DNA of 64,000 bases, taken from IMG/VR virus record IMGVR_UViG_3300030616_000506, positions 32,001-96,000 of that record; one strand, written 5' to 3'. The translations under genes and the position numbers were made by a program. The notes under the pieces were generated by a model. That model searched no databases, was not told where the DNA came from, and saw nothing but the letters and a program-made list of their open reading frames with translations. Positions 17,004 to 55,561 of this stretch are shown here, piece by piece; the first letter of the stretch is position 1, and the number at the start of each line of letters is the position of its first letter. The DNA comes from a virus.

Positions 17004-17855
17004 TCAATCTTTATTTTTGGTGCTCATAGCACCCTTAATTTTAAGCCAATCTTTATTTTTTCTAATTTCTATATTCTTTTTCCATGATGCATCCAATACT
17101 TTTGGGTCTATGCCTAACTCTCTGGATTTATATATTAGTGATCTAAGATCCTTAGGAAAACATAATCCTCCAAAACCAAAGTCTCCATCATGTCCCGGAA
17201 CATCCATATGAGAATTACCTATTCTACCGTCAGCTAATAGCATTTTCTTTACCTCTTCAAAATCTATACCTAATTTTTGGCATATCTGATAATATTCGTT
17301 CATTAATGATACTTTAACTGAAAAGAAACAGTTGGCTGAATATTTAACCATTTCAGCTGTAGTTGGATCAGTCCAATATATAGGAGTATGGATAAATCTC
17401 TCTCTATAGAGTTTATCTACTTCACATAGATCATCTGGATCTCCCCCTATAATAATTCTAGAAGAATTTATAAAATCTAATTTTGATGTTCTTGCAGTTA
17501 AAAACTCTGGATTAAACACAATTCTTAAGTGAGGTATATTTTTTTTTATTCTCTCCGTAGTTCCAGGAGGAATAGTGGATTTTATTATAAGTATCTTTTT
17601 TGGAGTAATATATTCTCTACTTTTTTCTATTGTTTTTTCCAATATAGAAATATCACATTCTCCTGTATCAATATCAGATGGTGTAGGTACACATATAAAT
17701 ATAAAGTCACTATCCCTTATAGTCTCTTCAAATGTATTCTCAGATATAATAGGATCTATATCATATATTCTAAAATCAGCTATTTGAGCAAATCCATGTT
17801 GAATTGCTCTTCCGACCATTCCAAATCCTATAATTCCTATTATACATTTCTTCAT
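17004..17855 (-). CDS. UDP-glucose/GDP-mannose dehydrogenase family, short form
   Basis: GFGMVG, CVPTP, KSTIPPGT, NPEFL, AEMVKY..N, GFGGLCFPKD. Confidence 0.92.
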   Translation of the reverse strand: MKKCIIGIIGFGMVGRAIQHGFAQIADFRIYDIDPIISENTFEETIRDSDFIFICVPTPSDIDTGECDISILEKTIEKSREYITPKKILIIKSTIPPGTTERIKKNIPHLRIVFNPEFLTARTSKLDFINSSRIIIGGDPDDLCEVDKLYRERFIHTPIYWTDPTTAEMVKYSANCFFSVKVSLMNEYYQICQKLGIDFEEVKKMLLADGRIGNSHMDVPGHDGDFGFGGLCFPKDLRSLIYKSRELGIDPKVLDASWKKNIEIRKNKDWLKIKGAMSTKNKD

Positions 17856-18421
17856 ATCTTTTTCCTCATAACTACAAGTGTATTTCTTCTACCATATAGT
17901 TCTCTGGGTATCTTATTTTTTCCAATTGATTTTATTATATCAAAGTACTCTTCAAGTCCATATAGTGTATCTAAATTATGATAATAATCATGTATAAATA
18001 AAACTGATTTCTCATCCATATATTTGAGGGCTGCTAAAGCACAAGCTTTTCTAGATCTACCATCTATTAATATTGCATCAAATCTTTTCTCTCCAAATTT
18101 CTCTATATAATTTATGTAATTTTTATAAAATATATCATCACAATATGGATATTTATCTACCTTTTTAACTTTCGCTAGATTCATATATACATTATCATAA
18201 CGTTTAAATTTCTCTATCCTATCTTTAACTTGTAAGAAAAAGTCCTTGTCATGCTCTATACTATAGTATTTTTTTACAAATTTTGGAAAGTAGACTGTAC
18301 TACCACCTGCTCCCCACTCTAACATTATGCTATTCTTATCTAAATAAGATACAACACAAGAAATCTCTTTAAGTGTCATTAATGGAGTATCACCTAAATT
18401 TCCTTTTTTACTTATCTTCAT
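17852..18421 (-). CDS. Class I SAM-dependent methyltransferase (probable start 18421)
   Basis: LEWGAGGST, SIEHD, FDAILIDGR..R, IHD. Confidence 0.8.
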   Translation of the reverse strand: MKISKKGNLGDTPLMTLKEISCVVSYLDKNSIMLEWGAGGSTVYFPKFVKKYYSIEHDKDFFLQVKDRIEKFKRYDNVYMNLAKVKKVDKYPYCDDIFYKNYINYIEKFGEKRFDAILIDGRSRKACALAALKYMDEKSVLFIHDYYHNLDTLYGLEEYFDIIKSIGKNKIPRELYGRRNTLVVMRKKI

Positions 18422-19373
18422 ATATAATCCTTGTTCCCTCATCCTCAAAGTTAAATGGTAATTCCTTAAGATCACTTAGGGCATATCTAACATCATTCTG
18501 TTTATCTGGTTCACAATAGAATAAAATAAAACCACCAGATCCAGCTCCACATATCTTTCCACCCTTAGCTCCAGATTTTATTCCTCTATTATAAATATCA
18601 TCTATTATATTATTACTAACCTTACCAGTACTCTTCTTTATTTTCCATACTTCATTAAGATAATAACCCATATCTTTTAGGTTATCTTTAATTATATCAT
18701 CATAAATGCACTTTGCTAACCAACATAGATCAGATACATCATTATATATGTCATCATATCTTTCTTTTTGGTCCTTCAATACACTTCCAGCACATCTCGT
18801 CATACCAGTATGAAATAATAACATATTATCCTGCATTTTATTATAGGTCTCTATATCAGTAAATACTGGAGATATCTTAACTCCTTTTCTATTAAATATC
18901 AACTTATTTAGACCTCCAAAGGTACATGCATATTGATCTTGTTTACCTATTGGTTCTCCCAATATTTCTATTTCAATCTTACATGCATCTTCAGCTAATT
19001 TGGATCTATTGAAGGTTATACCCTTATATGTATATAGTGCATTAAGTAATCCAACGGTAAACGCAGAACTTGATCCTAATCCACTTCCTCCTACTGTATC
19101 TGCTAGAGATACTATTTCAAGAGGTTCTTCTATATCAGCGTACTTAAGACATTCTCTAATTATAGGATGTTTGATATCATTTATATTACTTACAGTTTCT
19201 ACATCTCTATAAACTACTCTAAACTTATCTGAATGACTTTTGGTTATCATAACATATATATATTTATCTATTGTTGTTGATATCACAAATCCATCATTAT
19301 GTTTATAGTAATTCTCTAGGTCTGATAGACCTCCAGCGAGACTTAATCTATAAGGTGTCTTAGATATTATCAT
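18408..19373 (-). CDS. hddA: GHMP kinase, D-glycero-alpha-D-manno-heptose-7-phosphate kinase-like
   Basis: KTPYRLSLAGG.SD, GSGLGSSS, IGKQDQY, GGKICGAGSGGF. Confidence 0.85.
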   Translation of the reverse strand: MIISKTPYRLSLAGGLSDLENYYKHNDGFVISTTIDKYIYVMITKSHSDKFRVVYRDVETVSNINDIKHPIIRECLKYADIEEPLEIVSLADTVGGSGLGSSSAFTVGLLNALYTYKGITFNRSKLAEDACKIEIEILGEPIGKQDQYACTFGGLNKLIFNRKGVKISPVFTDIETYNKMQDNMLLFHTGMTRCAGSVLKDQKERYDDIYNDVSDLCWLAKCIYDDIIKDNLKDMGYYLNEVWKIKKSTGKVSNNIIDDIYNRGIKSGAKGGKICGAGSGGFILFYCEPDKQNDVRYALSDLKELPFNFEDEGTRIIYEDK

Positions 19374-54183: not shown

Positions 54184-54674
54184 TCTTCTGCATGTAACAT
54201 ATCTGAATTTATTATAAACTTTATAGGTTCTTCCATTTTAGCGATTCTTCCTTTATCTGATCCTAGAATAGCTATAGATATAATTCCATTATCGTATGCA
54301 TAATTAATGGCTTCTATTAGATTATCTGAATCTCCACTTCCACTAAATATTATTAGCACATCATTTGTATCTCCTAATATTGCAATTTGCTCTCTAAATA
54401 TTCTTTTATATTCAGTATCATTAGCCCAAGCTGTCAATAAAGGAATATTATCTGATAGGCATATAGCTTTTATACCACACATTTTCTGTAGGTCATTAGC
54501 CATATGTGAAGCAGTTGAGGAGCTTCCACCATTTCCACAAATAAATACCCTATTAGAGCCTTTAATTATTTTAACTATTGTCTTTATCAAGGCTTTCTGA
54601 TCATTTATAGATTCTGCACATCTTTTAGTATTATATATATAATCCATTATTTCTTTATTAAAGTTTTTTGCCAT
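54135..54674 (-). CDS. gmhA: Sedoheptulose-7-phosphate isomerase (SIS domain)
   Basis: CGNGGS.S.ASH..ND, LTAWAND..Y..IF..Q, SGSG.S.N, ED.H. Confidence 0.9.
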   Translation of the reverse strand: MAKNFNKEIMDYIYNTKRCAESINDQKALIKTIVKIIKGSNRVFICGNGGSSSTASHMANDLQKMCGIKAICLSDNIPLLTAWANDTEYKRIFREQIAILGDTNDVLIIFSGSGDSDNLIEAINYAYDNGIISIAILGSDKGRIAKMEEPIKFIINSDMLHAEDWHLTLEHLICKLIST

Positions 54675-55561
54675 TCTATTTGACCTCTTAAACCTTCATA
54701 AAAGTTTATTTTTGGACTCCAACCTAATTCCTTCATCCTATTAATATCTGCTAGAGTCTCATCAACATCATATATGTCTCTTGGCCTATAATCTATAGTA
54801 ACTTTTTTTCCAGTTATTTTAGCTATATAACATATAATTTCATTAATAGAGTGAGATTCATTAGATCCTATATTATAAGCACTATATAAAATTTTATTTG
54901 TAGATATTAATATTTCTATTGCACTACATATATCATCTATATGAGTAAAATCTCTCTTTTGTTTACCATCTCCATATAAAATAATAGGTTGATCTTTTAA
55001 TATCCAATCAGTAAATGCTCTTATAGCTAATTCATTTCTCTGGTGAGGTCCATAGACTGTAAAGAATCTCATAGAGGTACATTCTATATCCTTTAACATA
55101 CCACAATTCTTATAAGTACTTATTAAATATTCATTAGCACACTTACTCATAGCATATGGTGATCTAGGAGACAGACTTTCATATTCTTCTAGTTCAAGTC
55201 CTCCTCTACCTTTATCTCCATATACACTGGAACTACTAGCAATTAATAGTCTTTTAGGTTTCCAATTTTCTATACATTTTTTTATTATTCTCTGAGTACC
55301 TAAAATATTATCCTTACATACCTCATCGAATAATTCATGGCTATTCCTAACTCCTGGTCTAGCAGCTAGATGAATTACTGCATATACATCTTTTATATCT
55401 GGCAAATCAAAGTTTATATCCTTTTGATAAAATTTTATATCTGAAGATATATTTCTATTTATCTTATCTATTCCTATAACTTTATATTTCTTTTTTAATC
55501 TTTCTGTTAATGCTGATCCTATAAATCCACTACTTCCTGTTATTATTACCTTCTTTTTCAT
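54647..55561 (-). CDS. NAD-dependent epimerase (UDP-glucuronate 4-epimerase-like)
   Basis: TGSSGFIG, HLAARPGVR, SSSSVYG, SPYAMSK, RFFTVYGP, RDFTHIDD. Confidence 0.9.
   Translation of the reverse strand: MKKKVIITGSSGFIGSALTERLKKKYKVIGIDKINRNISSDIKFYQKDINFDLPDIKDVYAVIHLAARPGVRNSHELFDEVCKDNILGTQRIIKKCIENWKPKRLLIASSSSVYGDKGRGGLELEEYESLSPRSPYAMSKCANEYLISTYKNCGMLKDIECTSMRFFTVYGPHQRNELAIRAFTDWILKDQPIILYGDGKQKRDFTHIDDICSAIEILISTNKILYSAYNIGSNESHSINEIICYIAKITGKKVTIDYRPRDIYDVDETLADINRMKELGWSPKINFYEGLRGQIEWQKTLIKK

Follow-up and report, generated by a model that had tools for sequence, protein, structure and literature searches.

The locus described here raises a simple question: what does a tailed virus do with a block of glycan-synthesis genes which takes up 38.5 kb next to its tail genes, and on which molecule does the glycan end? 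The block lies in the IMG/VR record IMGVR_UViG_3300030616_000506, which has 144,545 bases. We call window the whole stretch of 64,000 nucleotides analysed, bases 32001-96000 of that record; all coordinates of the cluster are window positions. Between positions 17004 and 55561 we have found 48 open reading frames (ORFs), all of them on the minus strand, which code for proteins of 121-461 aa. The ORFs overlap in 43 of the 47 adjacent pairs, only two gaps are longer than 10 bases and 99.5% of the span is coding. An initial annotation, made from the sequence alone, had described about 43 co-oriented and overlapping genes in this interval: orientation, overlap and coordinates were right, the count is 48. 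We will argue that the cluster may be a virus-encoded, membrane-independent glycosylation factory which decorates the proteins of the virion, a reading which in our judgement could equally well prove right or wrong.

The enzyme classes of the cluster were assigned by profile searches with Pfam and NCBIfam, and each class named in the initial annotation was found again in this way. Its four to six glycosyltransferases (GTs) have become six: two GT2, one GT-B, one GT8-like GT-A, one Maf/CstII-like enzyme and a weak TIGR04372 candidate. Pfam alone recovers the two GT2 and the GT-B; the GT8-like and the Maf/CstII-like enzymes are apparent by fold only. The tailoring set comprises two sulfotransferases, four or five methyltransferases, two hexapeptide acyltransferases, one formyltransferase and a WbuX amidotransferase. 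There are also six radical S-adenosylmethionine (SAM) enzymes, four with a SPASM domain and two with a B12-type domain. A Kyte-Doolittle scan found no membrane-spanning protein among the 48 ORFs; of the two marginal hydrophobic segments, one is the GxGxxG strand of a Rossmann fold and the other reaches 1.61, which is the threshold level. Pfam gave no match in the 48 ORFs to a flippase, Wzy/Wzz, an ABC exporter, a priming phosphoglycosyl transferase or an oligosaccharyltransferase. The solubility of the enzymes and the lack of these parts, both read earlier from the sequence, are therefore confirmed, and the cluster differs from a cellular surface-polysaccharide or N-glycosylation locus, the hallmarks of which are exporter, polymerase, priming transferase and oligosaccharyltransferase. 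By family assignment it codes for soluble enzymes predicted to make several activated sugar and phosphonate donors. The matches support products which would be anionic, with nonulosonate, uronate, sulfate and phosphonate groups.

A block of this kind might be an artefact, either a host genomic island misassembled onto viral DNA or a host locus flanking a prophage. Glycan loci are typical cellular islands, and the record is a metagenome assembly which CheckV rates as 45% complete. The initial annotation had itself named host chromosome or a chimera as fatal to its proposal and advised a search for capsid and terminase. Both are present on the same contig: PHROGs matches TerL (5e-85), portal (8e-29), protease (2e-14), capsid (3e-16) and tape measure (2e-51). 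With TerL, portal, HK97-fold capsid, protease and tape measure on one molecule, the gene content assigns the record to Caudoviricetes. Its left module, on the plus strand, contains TerL, portal, an HNH endonuclease, protease, the HK97-type capsid, duplicated proteins of tail-tube size, a 3344-aa protein, a 2057-aa tape measure and ten tail or fibre ORFs. The end of this virion module occupies positions 1-16831 (+) of the window, where the tape measure (1-5703) is followed by the ten tail/fibre ORFs: these are the tail genes that had been reported to adjoin the cluster. They are convergent on it and syntenic in the relatives described below. On the other side, upstream and on the same strand as the cluster, positions 55570-58602 hold an Hsp20-like protein (a weak match to an archaeal Hsp20 of NCBIfam), small ORFs, a thioredoxin-fold CxxC protein and a ribonucleotide reductase (RNR), the latter matched by Pfam and PHROGs. 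This strand continues upstream with the RNR, a second GT, PolB and a RecA/Rad51-family recombinase. Neither GC content (0.26-0.34) nor strand skew breaks at the cluster junctions, and no tRNA or Rfam RNA is found anywhere on the record.

The junction between cluster and tail genes recurs in four further contigs, assembled at ENA and JGI: ERZ27252234 (63.9 kb, 100% identity), JGI 3300028920 (99.98%), JGI 3300028883 (99.94%) and ERZ27252208 (99.77%). The last one represents a second strain, because its fibre genes are rearranged. An assembly artefact is hardly credible: viral genes flank both sides on one contig, the junction is found in four others including a second strain, the same synteny is present in four diverged relatives, cellular marker genes and RNAs are absent and the composition is uniform. 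The cluster block is viral; it is neither host DNA nor a chimera.

The cluster of the second strain is 99.8% identical to ours. When it is compared with window positions 8700-14300, the 911-aa fibre gives way to one of 789 aa, the genes are ordered differently and identity falls to 84-96%. This points to receptor-binding genes which change rapidly beside a stable glycan cluster. The 911-aa tail fibre has no relatives in viral contigs; Pfam has no match in ten tail or giant-protein ORFs, and PHROGs almost none in the tail ORFs. A terminator-like hairpin with a T-run (16942-16962, minus strand) lies in the gap where cluster and tail module converge, 42 bases past the last cluster stop; the terminator consensus scan found two sites, with 0.5 expected.

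The CheckV value would imply a genome of about 320 kb. However, another contig (G004), labelled as a provirus in IMG/VR, is entirely viral; in it the TerS side of the head module is connected with homologues of the genes which end our contig on the right. Because of this linkage the ends of the contig are probably adjacent, with a genome of about 145 kb instead of 320 kb. The cluster would then represent about 27% of the genome.

The presence of such a cluster is not limited to one virus. The capsid protein has 41 relatives in IMG/VR, with identities of 37-84%, and three long relatives were taken whole: G001, G002 and G003, with 155, 116 and 74 kb. All of them have the same order of replication genes, glycan cluster, convergent tail genes and head genes. 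A survey of viral databases for similar clusters had been suggested, and it finds them in these three genomes in the same slot between replication and tail genes, with sizes of about 32, 36 and 9 kb; no polytopic membrane protein occurs in any of the three. In a fifth member of the lineage, L082 (IMGVR_UViG_3300028920_000038, a contig of 138 kb), the cluster ends in the same way next to the last tail gene; the whole phosphonate module is found there, with its genes arranged differently.

Five genes have orthologues in G001-G003 and form a core. The first gene of the cluster is one of them, a short-chain dehydrogenase/reductase (SDR) of the NDP-sugar epimerase/4,6-dehydratase type (54647-55561; Pfam Epimerase/GDP_Man_Dehyd). 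The others are the GT8-like enzyme (53251-54183), the GT-B of GT1/GT4-like type (50837-51754; Pfam Glyco_trans_1_4/Glycos_transf_1, 54-59% identity in the three relatives), a sugar-1-phosphate nucleotidylyltransferase (49494-50216; Pfam NTP_transferase) and one GT2 (28880-29917; Pfam Glycos_transf_2, 41-60% identity in the three relatives and 61% in L082). The best NCBIfam matches of the nucleotidylyltransferase are archaeal GlmU-type, AglF and HddC, all under their cut-offs. At the other extreme, 31 of the 48 genes are without any orthologue-level match in these three genomes, though the clusters of two of them are similar in size. The comparison shows that the glycan cluster is a lineage trait of tailed viruses which are large (about 75-155 kb) and apparently virulent.

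A free-standing LAGLIDADG homing endonuclease (51736-52584; Pfam LAGLIDADG_2, E 4e-15) is found between genes of the cluster. It might be thought to split a GT, which we reject: the neighbouring GT is full length when compared with the relatives. Its homologue in G001 sits in the replication module instead. The virus has a second free-standing homing endonuclease, of HNH type, between the portal and protease genes (L002:5897-6424).

Which sugars could be made? The NCBIfam names given here are best matches under equivalog cut-offs, as is the case for almost all pathway enzymes; PepM and the WbuX amidotransferase exceed theirs. We will start with the run at 27933-38030, which has all six steps of a nonulosonate pathway at family level. 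They are a 4,6-dehydratase for UDP-HexNAc of PseB/FnlA type (27933-28889; Pfam Polysacc_synt_2, E 4e-77; NCBIfam PseB, under cut-off), a DegT-type sugar aminotransferase, PseC/LegC-like (31292-32371; Pfam DegT_DnrJ_EryC1, E 9e-101; NCBIfam PseC and LegC, under cut-offs), a hexapeptide-repeat N-acyltransferase (33504-33935; Pfam Hexapep), a short hydrolysing NDP-sugar 2-epimerase of NeuC/LegG type (35309-36118; Pfam Epimerase_2; NCBIfam NeuC_NnaA, under cut-off), a short nonulosonate synthase of the NeuB family without SAF domain (36100-36771; Pfam NeuB, E 2e-44) and a CMP-nonulosonate synthetase, a cytidylyltransferase (37446-38030; Pfam CTP_transf_3; NCBIfam PseF, under cut-off). Interspersed with them there are an acetamidino-forming N-acetyl sugar amidotransferase of WbuX/PseA type (32368-33519; NCBIfam TIGR03573, 325 bits over a cut-off of 203 bits), a sugar N-formyltransferase (33925-34665; Pfam Formyl_trans_N/C), a PIG-L family de-N-acetylase (34662-35312; Pfam PIG-L, E 4e-22) and a class I SAM methyltransferase (36755-37465; Pfam Methyltransf_31/23/25). 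The core GT2 and an SDR epimerase/dehydratase (29910-31295; Pfam Epimerase) lie in the same run; the N-terminal extension of the latter has a weak CBS match (E 9.4e-5, under cut-off).

These genes predict a complete route to a CMP-activated 5,7-diamino nonulosonate with variable N-acyl groups: acetyl, formyl and acetamidino. The signals are mixed, since a PseB-like dehydratase is found alongside a NeuC-type epimerase, and for the synthase NeuB outscores PseI in NCBIfam, both under cut-offs. Because of these mixed signals, and because all nonulosonate matches except WbuX fall under equivalog cut-offs, the stereochemistry (Pse, Leg or Neu) cannot be called. The short NeuB and NeuC may be decayed pseudogenes: the relatives have NeuB homologues of greater length (278-428 aa) and none of NeuC.

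A second set of genes would produce an NDP-heptose. It is composed of a GmhA-like sedoheptulose-7-phosphate isomerase (54135-54674; Pfam SIS_2; NCBIfam gmhA), a HAD-type phosphatase with a presumed GmhB-like role (52907-53293; Pfam HAD_PNKP/PNK3P), a nucleotidyltransferase and two different kinases of heptose-7-phosphate type: a PfkB sugar kinase similar to RfaE domain I (47669-48583; Pfam PfkB; NCBIfam rfaE_dom_I) and an HddA-like GHMP kinase (18408-19373; Pfam GHMP_kinases_N/C; NCBIfam HddA). All four activities of the NDP-heptose pathway are matched at family level, with two kinase types, each under its equivalog cut-off. A split transketolase-like enzyme dependent on thiamine diphosphate (46497-47676; 49-63% identity in G001 and G002), with an N part at 46972-47676 (Pfam Transketolase_N) and a pyrimidine-binding part at 46497-46979 (Transket_pyr), could yield sedoheptulose-7-phosphate or add a two-carbon branch. 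The RmlD-like NDP-4-keto-sugar reductase (44421-45269; Pfam RmlD_sub_bind, E 1e-56) and SDRs would perform deoxygenation and epimerisation. Besides the SDRs already named, the cluster has one at 38892-39653 (Pfam adh_short_C2, E 3e-48) and one at 19360-20250 (an NDP-sugar epimerase/dehydratase; Pfam Epimerase, E 9e-43).

A uronic acid donor is predicted from the last gene of the cluster, a short UDP-glucose/GDP-mannose dehydrogenase without C-terminal domain (17004-17855; Pfam UDPG_MGDP_dh_N and central domain). The short form recurs in G003 (289 aa) and L082 (277 aa). A decayed pseudogene is an unlikely explanation for this enzyme or for the short alcohol dehydrogenase described below: the same short forms are found at 55-66% identity in G003 and L082.

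The tailoring enzymes are dispersed throughout the cluster. Sulfotransferases are found at 40475-41428 (Pfam Sulfotransfer_1, E 1.6e-6) and 24685-25296 (Sulfotransfer_4, E 2e-23), the second hexapeptide-repeat acyltransferase at 25353-25955 (Hexapep) and an FkbM-family methyltransferase at 50203-50868 (Methyltransf_21, E 6e-20). A probable O-methyltransferase (17852-18475; Methyltransf_24, E 6e-4) and a probable SAM methyltransferase (20235-21098; Methyltransf_23, E 1e-4) have weak matches, under cut-off. An ORF of 124 aa (52575-52949) has no family match in Pfam or NCBIfam.

Close to the tail-side end there is a phosphonate module. It contains a fusion of a cytidylyltransferase with phosphoenolpyruvate (PEP) mutase, PepM, for the formation of the C-P bond (21868-23151). 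Its NCBIfam match, PEP_mutase (TIGR02320), has 379 bits, over the cut-off of 319.6 bits, and the motif EDKKYPKKNS (EDKx5NS) is intact. Adjacent to it is a split phosphonopyruvate decarboxylase, Ppd (alpha 24179-24544, Pfam TPP_enzyme_N, weak; beta 23740-24249, TPP_enzyme_C): an EDKx5NS mutase with an adjacent Ppd as thermodynamic driver is what defines PepM-dependent phosphonate synthesis. A short Fe-dependent alcohol dehydrogenase (Fe-ADH; 23148-23771; Pfam ADH_Fe_C/Fe-ADH, 56% identity in L082) may have the role of phosphonoacetaldehyde reductase. PepM, Ppd and Fe-ADH predict a CMP-activated donor of hydroxyethylphosphonate type. The PepM fusion has relatives in the viral contigs L082 (67% identity) and L083 (IMGVR_UViG_3300025141_010302; 55%), so that it is present in at least two members of the lineage and one other viral contig. 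The Ppd pair also adjoins PepM in L082. Beside the module, a 268-aa protein (21062-21868) has no family match, nor any match in a sequence search of the PDB. It is found at 46% identity beside Ppd/PepM in L082 and at 48% in G002, which itself has no PepM.

The six radical SAM enzymes belong to two types. Those with a B12-type domain are found at 45253-46500, where the domain is N-terminal (Pfam Radical_SAM and B12-binding; nearest solved chains 9ccb and AprD4), and at 25952-27202, an AprD4-like enzyme (Pfam; PDB 6fd2 AprD4, E 3.5e-20). The four SPASM enzymes comprise two paralogues (43370-44431 and 42272-43360; Pfam Radical_SAM and SPASM), for which DesII and cytosylglucuronate decarboxylase come closest among solved chains, each as a weak match, and two others at 39607-40491 and 38032-38892 (Pfam). 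Taken together, the nearest solved relatives are AprD4, DesII and cytosylglucuronate decarboxylase (BlsE), which act on sugars or sugar nucleotides. SPASM enzymes might also be maturases of ribosomally synthesised and post-translationally modified peptides, but this is not supported: the nearest solved relatives act on sugar nucleotides, though the SPASM matches are weak.

These radical SAM relatives all come from antibiotic pathways, which suggests another product: a soluble glycosylated or phosphonate compound, similar to an aminoglycoside, a nucleoside or fosfomycin, which would be produced in the infected cell and would inhibit competitors or functions of the host. The cytidylyltransferase-PepM, Ppd, Fe-ADH and B12-type radical SAM enzymes resemble the early fosfomycin steps Fom1/Fom2/FomC/Fom3. 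Natural products encoded by viruses have been raised as an idea (PMC8942020). Nevertheless six GTs, a complete predicted nonulosonate route and an enzyme with a sialyltransferase fold point to a glycoconjugate. The Pfam results contain no exporter, resistance gene or scaffold-forming enzyme (inositol or 2-deoxystreptamine synthase), and the conserved core is dominated by GTs, not by tailoring enzymes. We find a natural product improbable.

Two of the GTs were recognised through their predicted structures, and searches of PDB sequences gave no match for either. The 310-aa GT8-like core protein (53251-54183), which has no Pfam or NCBIfam match, is modelled by AlphaFold2 (AF2) with a pLDDT of 93. 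Foldseek finds LgtC, LARGE1 and the xyloside xylosyltransferase XXYLT1 with E from 1e-10 to 1e-8 (LgtC E 1.9e-10) and TM 0.55-0.64. By fold it is a GT8-like GT-A enzyme of retaining type, with catalysis and donor as predictions. It has at least 100 homologues, with 41-86% identity among the matches listed, many of them on contigs of 100-140 kb. The 284-aa protein (41421-42275) has an AF2 pLDDT of 92; CstII and Maf are the top Foldseek matches, with a probability of 1.0. An alignment with VIA-align gives Z 12.8 and rmsd 3.4 A over 190 residues against Maf (5mu5), and Z 11.7 against CstII. The gene adjoins a sulfotransferase and is located a few genes downstream of the nonulosonate genes. The model has the modified Rossmann fold of sialyltransferases, which makes the protein a candidate CMP-nonulosonate transferase, its donor being a prediction. 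This fold is common in uncultured tailed phages and mimivirids. The two remaining GTs are a second GT2 (27199-27936; Pfam Glycos_transf_2) and a possible GT (48571-49497; TIGR04372, E 1.4e-4, under cut-off) with homologues of 26-32% identity in G001 and G002.

Where does the glycan go? Maf-type enzymes put a sugar directly on Ser/Thr of a folded protein, flagellin, in the cytoplasm (PMC9298399, PMC13130089). The Maf/CstII fold thus offers a concrete route for protein glycosylation in the cytoplasm without lipid carrier, and glycosylation of the virion in the cytoplasm is favoured because the enzymes of the cluster need neither lipid carrier nor export. Megavirinae and mycobacteriophages, discussed below, provide precedents for virions decorated by enzymes of the virus itself. 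In the process we propose, the five-gene core (nucleotidyltransferase, SDR, GT8-like, GT-B and GT2) would build a base glycan and the variable modules would then add acidic outer sugars. The Maf/CstII-fold enzyme would transfer the nonulosonate. The acceptors would be Ser/Thr-rich proteins of the virion surface, such as the fibres and the 3344-aa protein, which would receive the glycan in the cytoplasm before the particle is assembled; the outcome would be an anionic glycan coat which varies with the strain. The proteins of the virion module have 17.7% Ser+Thr, compared with about 10% in the enzymes, and N-X-S/T sequons are not enriched. In the 3344-aa protein (L003:819-10853; genome 16819-26853) Ser reaches 15% overall and 12-19% along most of its length; it is a candidate glycan-bearing fibre. 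This protein has degenerate recurring motifs, such as ...YIxxVSSNA... and ...EDYIASxxAIAKF..., and no Pfam match; its homologues in the relatives are far shorter (about 740-940 aa).

Several observations weigh against decoration of the virion. The acceptor itself is inferred, so that the surface of the host competes with virion proteins for this role. Phages that lack glycosylation commonly have fibres rich in Ser/Thr too. The cluster shares its transcription with replication and nucleotide-metabolism genes and lies outside the late virion operon. The best NCBIfam matches of the GT2 enzymes, which are far sub-threshold, act on lipid-linked intermediates. The 284-aa protein reaches only 10.8 bits (E 0.03) with Pfam PF01973 (MptE-like/DUF115), where the cut-off is 34.6; because this threshold is missed, we liken the protein to Maf/GT42 in action and do not class it as a member by sequence. 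Among its neighbours in the Atlas, PF01973 is found in only 15-16% of members. No APS kinase was found, so that sulfation would depend on PAPS supplied by the host. The exact sugars are not fixed by family scores, nearly all of which are below equivalog cut-offs. The short forms of NeuB, NeuC, Fe-ADH and UDP-glucose dehydrogenase have predicted activities only.

Some of these points suit a different destination. The nucleotide sugars and peripheral GTs of the virus could act on the lipid-carrier pathway of the host, whose flippase and oligosaccharyltransferase or polymerase would display an altered glycan on S-layer, capsule or lipopolysaccharide (LPS); the remodelled surface could block superinfection or the trapping of progeny on debris. 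The missing export parts would then be supplied by the host, and soluble GTs could feed its carrier pathway because of the resemblance of the GT2 to enzymes with lipid-linked acceptors, a weak one to the PglI/PgaC type. Transcription with early/middle replication genes also agrees with such an action, and the hypervariable gene content fits an arms race over receptors as well. The same proposal was made for 24 'LPS' genes of cyanophage P-SSM2 (PMC1079782). On the other hand, the five records contain no sign of lysogeny: no tyrosine integrase was found in them, and no integrated copies among 185,579 species genomes. For this reason lysogenic (serotype) conversion is unlikely. The Maf/CstII-fold transferase needs no lipid carrier. 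Assembly on a carrier usually includes membrane-anchored GTs, of which there are zero in this cluster and in those of G001-G003, and 48 genes are a high price for a short-lived effect during lytic infection. We regard remodelling of the host surface as possible but rather unlikely. The initial annotation had offered it in the form of an S-layer glycan, which presupposes a host; as discussed below, the host is only possibly archaeal. Its other proposal, virion proteins or DNA, fares unevenly: the Maf/CstII-like fold and the presence of the cluster as a lineage trait strengthen virion decoration, and the DNA option is weakened.

If DNA were the acceptor, sugars would be placed on modified bases of the viral genome and would protect it from restriction. 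Phage GTs are reported to glycosylate DNA with diverse glycans (Pyle 2024, as cited in PMC12619734). A highly conserved GT-B gene is present near PolB, just outside the window. Nevertheless the cluster adjoins tail genes, and we know of no DNA precedent for nonulosonate, heptose, sulfate or phosphonate chemistry. ThyA/ThyX (PF00303, PF02511) have no match in this record or in G001-G003, one of them rated 87% complete, although the records may be incomplete. Because no enzyme that makes hydroxymethyl-pyrimidines was found, DNA modification is disfavoured; we consider it very improbable. The GT-B just mentioned is a 425-aa protein on the minus strand (L004:3377-4654), 3.4-4.7 kb past the right end of the window, with two ORFs between it and PolB. 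With 73% identity in G001 and G002 it is better conserved than all genes of the cluster. Among solved structures, the chlorovirus GT B736L is nearest to it (E 9e-11). It could be a priming GT for a virion glycan, or a DNA GT.

If virion decoration is accepted, a fuller claim can be formulated: a widespread lineage of large tailed viruses, possibly archaeal, would carry a complex, sulfated and phosphonylated nonulosonate/heptose coat made wholly in the cytoplasm by enzymes which the virus itself encodes. No phosphonoglycan would have been described on a virus particle before, and the radical SAM enzymes would perform sugar chemistry new to glycan pathways. The claim as a whole is tentative, and we expect it to fail in some part rather than to hold.

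To our knowledge, viral glycosylation independent of the host is established mainly in giant eukaryotic viruses, and tailed phages are known only for a few GTs. In Megavirinae, clusters of 6-33 genes produce virion glycans with virus-encoded enzymes (PMC10117803). These and the chlorovirus systems resemble our cluster in the grouping of nucleotide-sugar pathways with soluble GTs, in being clade-specific, in rare sugars of bacterial type and sometimes in sulfation (PMC10117803). They differ by belonging to eukaryotic viruses of 0.3-1.5 Mb, whereas 48 genes are found here in a tailed virus of about 145 kb. To judge from its genes, the present cluster adds nonulosonate, heptose, a PepM phosphonate and six radical SAM enzymes. 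The flagellin O-glycosylation island of Campylobacter jejuni is large; it is also all-soluble, without flippase or oligosaccharyltransferase, and has a 5,7-diamino nonulosonate with acetamidino and other N-acyl variants as well as Maf enzymes. However it is cellular, with flagellin as acceptor, and the viral Maf-like protein is a minimal domain of 284 aa under the Pfam threshold. The viral locus adds heptose, uronate, sulfate and phosphonate chemistry and five other GTs.

Among phages, GTs of the mycobacteriophages Che8, Corndog and Myrna modify capsid and tail-tube proteins in the cytoplasm (Freeman 2023, as cited in PMC12619734). As far as that account goes, they are few GTs which use nucleotide sugars of the host, and no self-contained sugar factory with several pathways is described. 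Cyanophage P-SSM2, a lytic tailed phage, has blocks of epimerases, transferases and synthases whose target is unproven (PMC1079782); its 24 genes form two clusters in a larger genome, and neither PepM nor such a density of radical SAM enzymes has been reported. The phosphonate genes are similar to phosphonoglycan and early fosfomycin modules (PntC/Fom1-PepM), with a cytidylyltransferase-PepM with EDKx5NS, Ppd and an Fe-ADH of group III (PMC8942020). Here they are encoded by a tailed virus, whereas the survey in that work found Ppm in no RefSeq virus, in 0 of 364 huge phages and in only one metagenome-assembled genome (MAG) of a nucleocytoplasmic large DNA virus. Finally, the Asgard virus GuangzhiV1 is a tailed virus with a locus of GT, dehydratase and methyltransferase genes proposed to modify virion or host proteins (PMC13700489). 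It has five genes in about 5.5 kb, compared with 48 genes in 38.5 kb, and in our case an archaeal host is a suspicion. Within a limited literature search ours is the largest and chemically richest viral example found, and its genome the smallest; its gene count exceeds the 33 of tupanviruses.

With 48 genes of this kind on about 27% of a tailed-virus genome, such self-sufficiency is not tied to giant genomes. The synthesis of C-P bonds is placed in tailed viruses, where the earlier survey had none. The cluster also offers an all-soluble toolbox for glyco-engineering: minimal NeuB, NeuC and UDP-sugar dehydrogenase, Maf-like and GT8-like GTs and six radical SAM enzymes. The combination of a conserved core with variable modules makes selection for virion glycan diversity testable by comparing members of the lineage. 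If the virion coat is real, it would be a counterpart in prokaryotic viruses of the fibril glycans of mimivirus.

The host is possibly archaeal. The nearest relatives of the capsid are those of haloarchaeal tailed viruses, with 27-29% identity; PolB is closest to archaeal PolBs and matches 0 of 50,697 phage records. The nucleotidyltransferase and the Hsp20 are also nearest to archaeal families, and neither an amidase_2 nor a phage lysozyme was found. Other features run counter to an archaeal host: no PCNA was found, the portal is nearest to that of Bacillus phage 0305phi8-36 and there are strong GGAGG ribosome-binding sites. Relatives of the capsid are binned with both bacterial and archaeal MAGs. 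A scan of the 185,579 species genomes with the capsid profile gave four short contigs, in bins of Saccharibacteria, Planctomycetota, ANME-2 and Methanoregulaceae, which we treat as binning noise.

Some features outside the cluster should also be mentioned. TerL (L002:1416-3821) has 801 aa; in G001 and G004 its length is 464-472 aa, whereas G003 has a TerL of about 1360 aa. Its PHROGs matches are split into N- and C-terminal halves, and relatives in Vibrio phages are annotated as 'hint domain': it likely holds an intein or another insertion. In the tail module, with the 3344-aa protein on one side and a 570-aa protein on the other, two adjacent proteins of about 150 aa have five predicted membrane helices each (L003:11642-12557; genome 27642-28557, +). 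The contig codes for no other polytopic membrane protein, and homologues of the two are missing from G001-G003. Tandem protease-like genes (246 and 228 aa) are found at 61012-63006, one with a hydrophobic N-terminus; G002 contains a homologue of 45% identity. This pair may be the lysis enzyme, because the contig revealed no member of a classical endolysin family. Upstream of the RNR, at 56397-57115, a small zinc-ribbon protein (CxxC...CxxC) accompanies the thioredoxin/glutaredoxin-like CxxC protein, and both are probably redox partners or regulators of the RNR.

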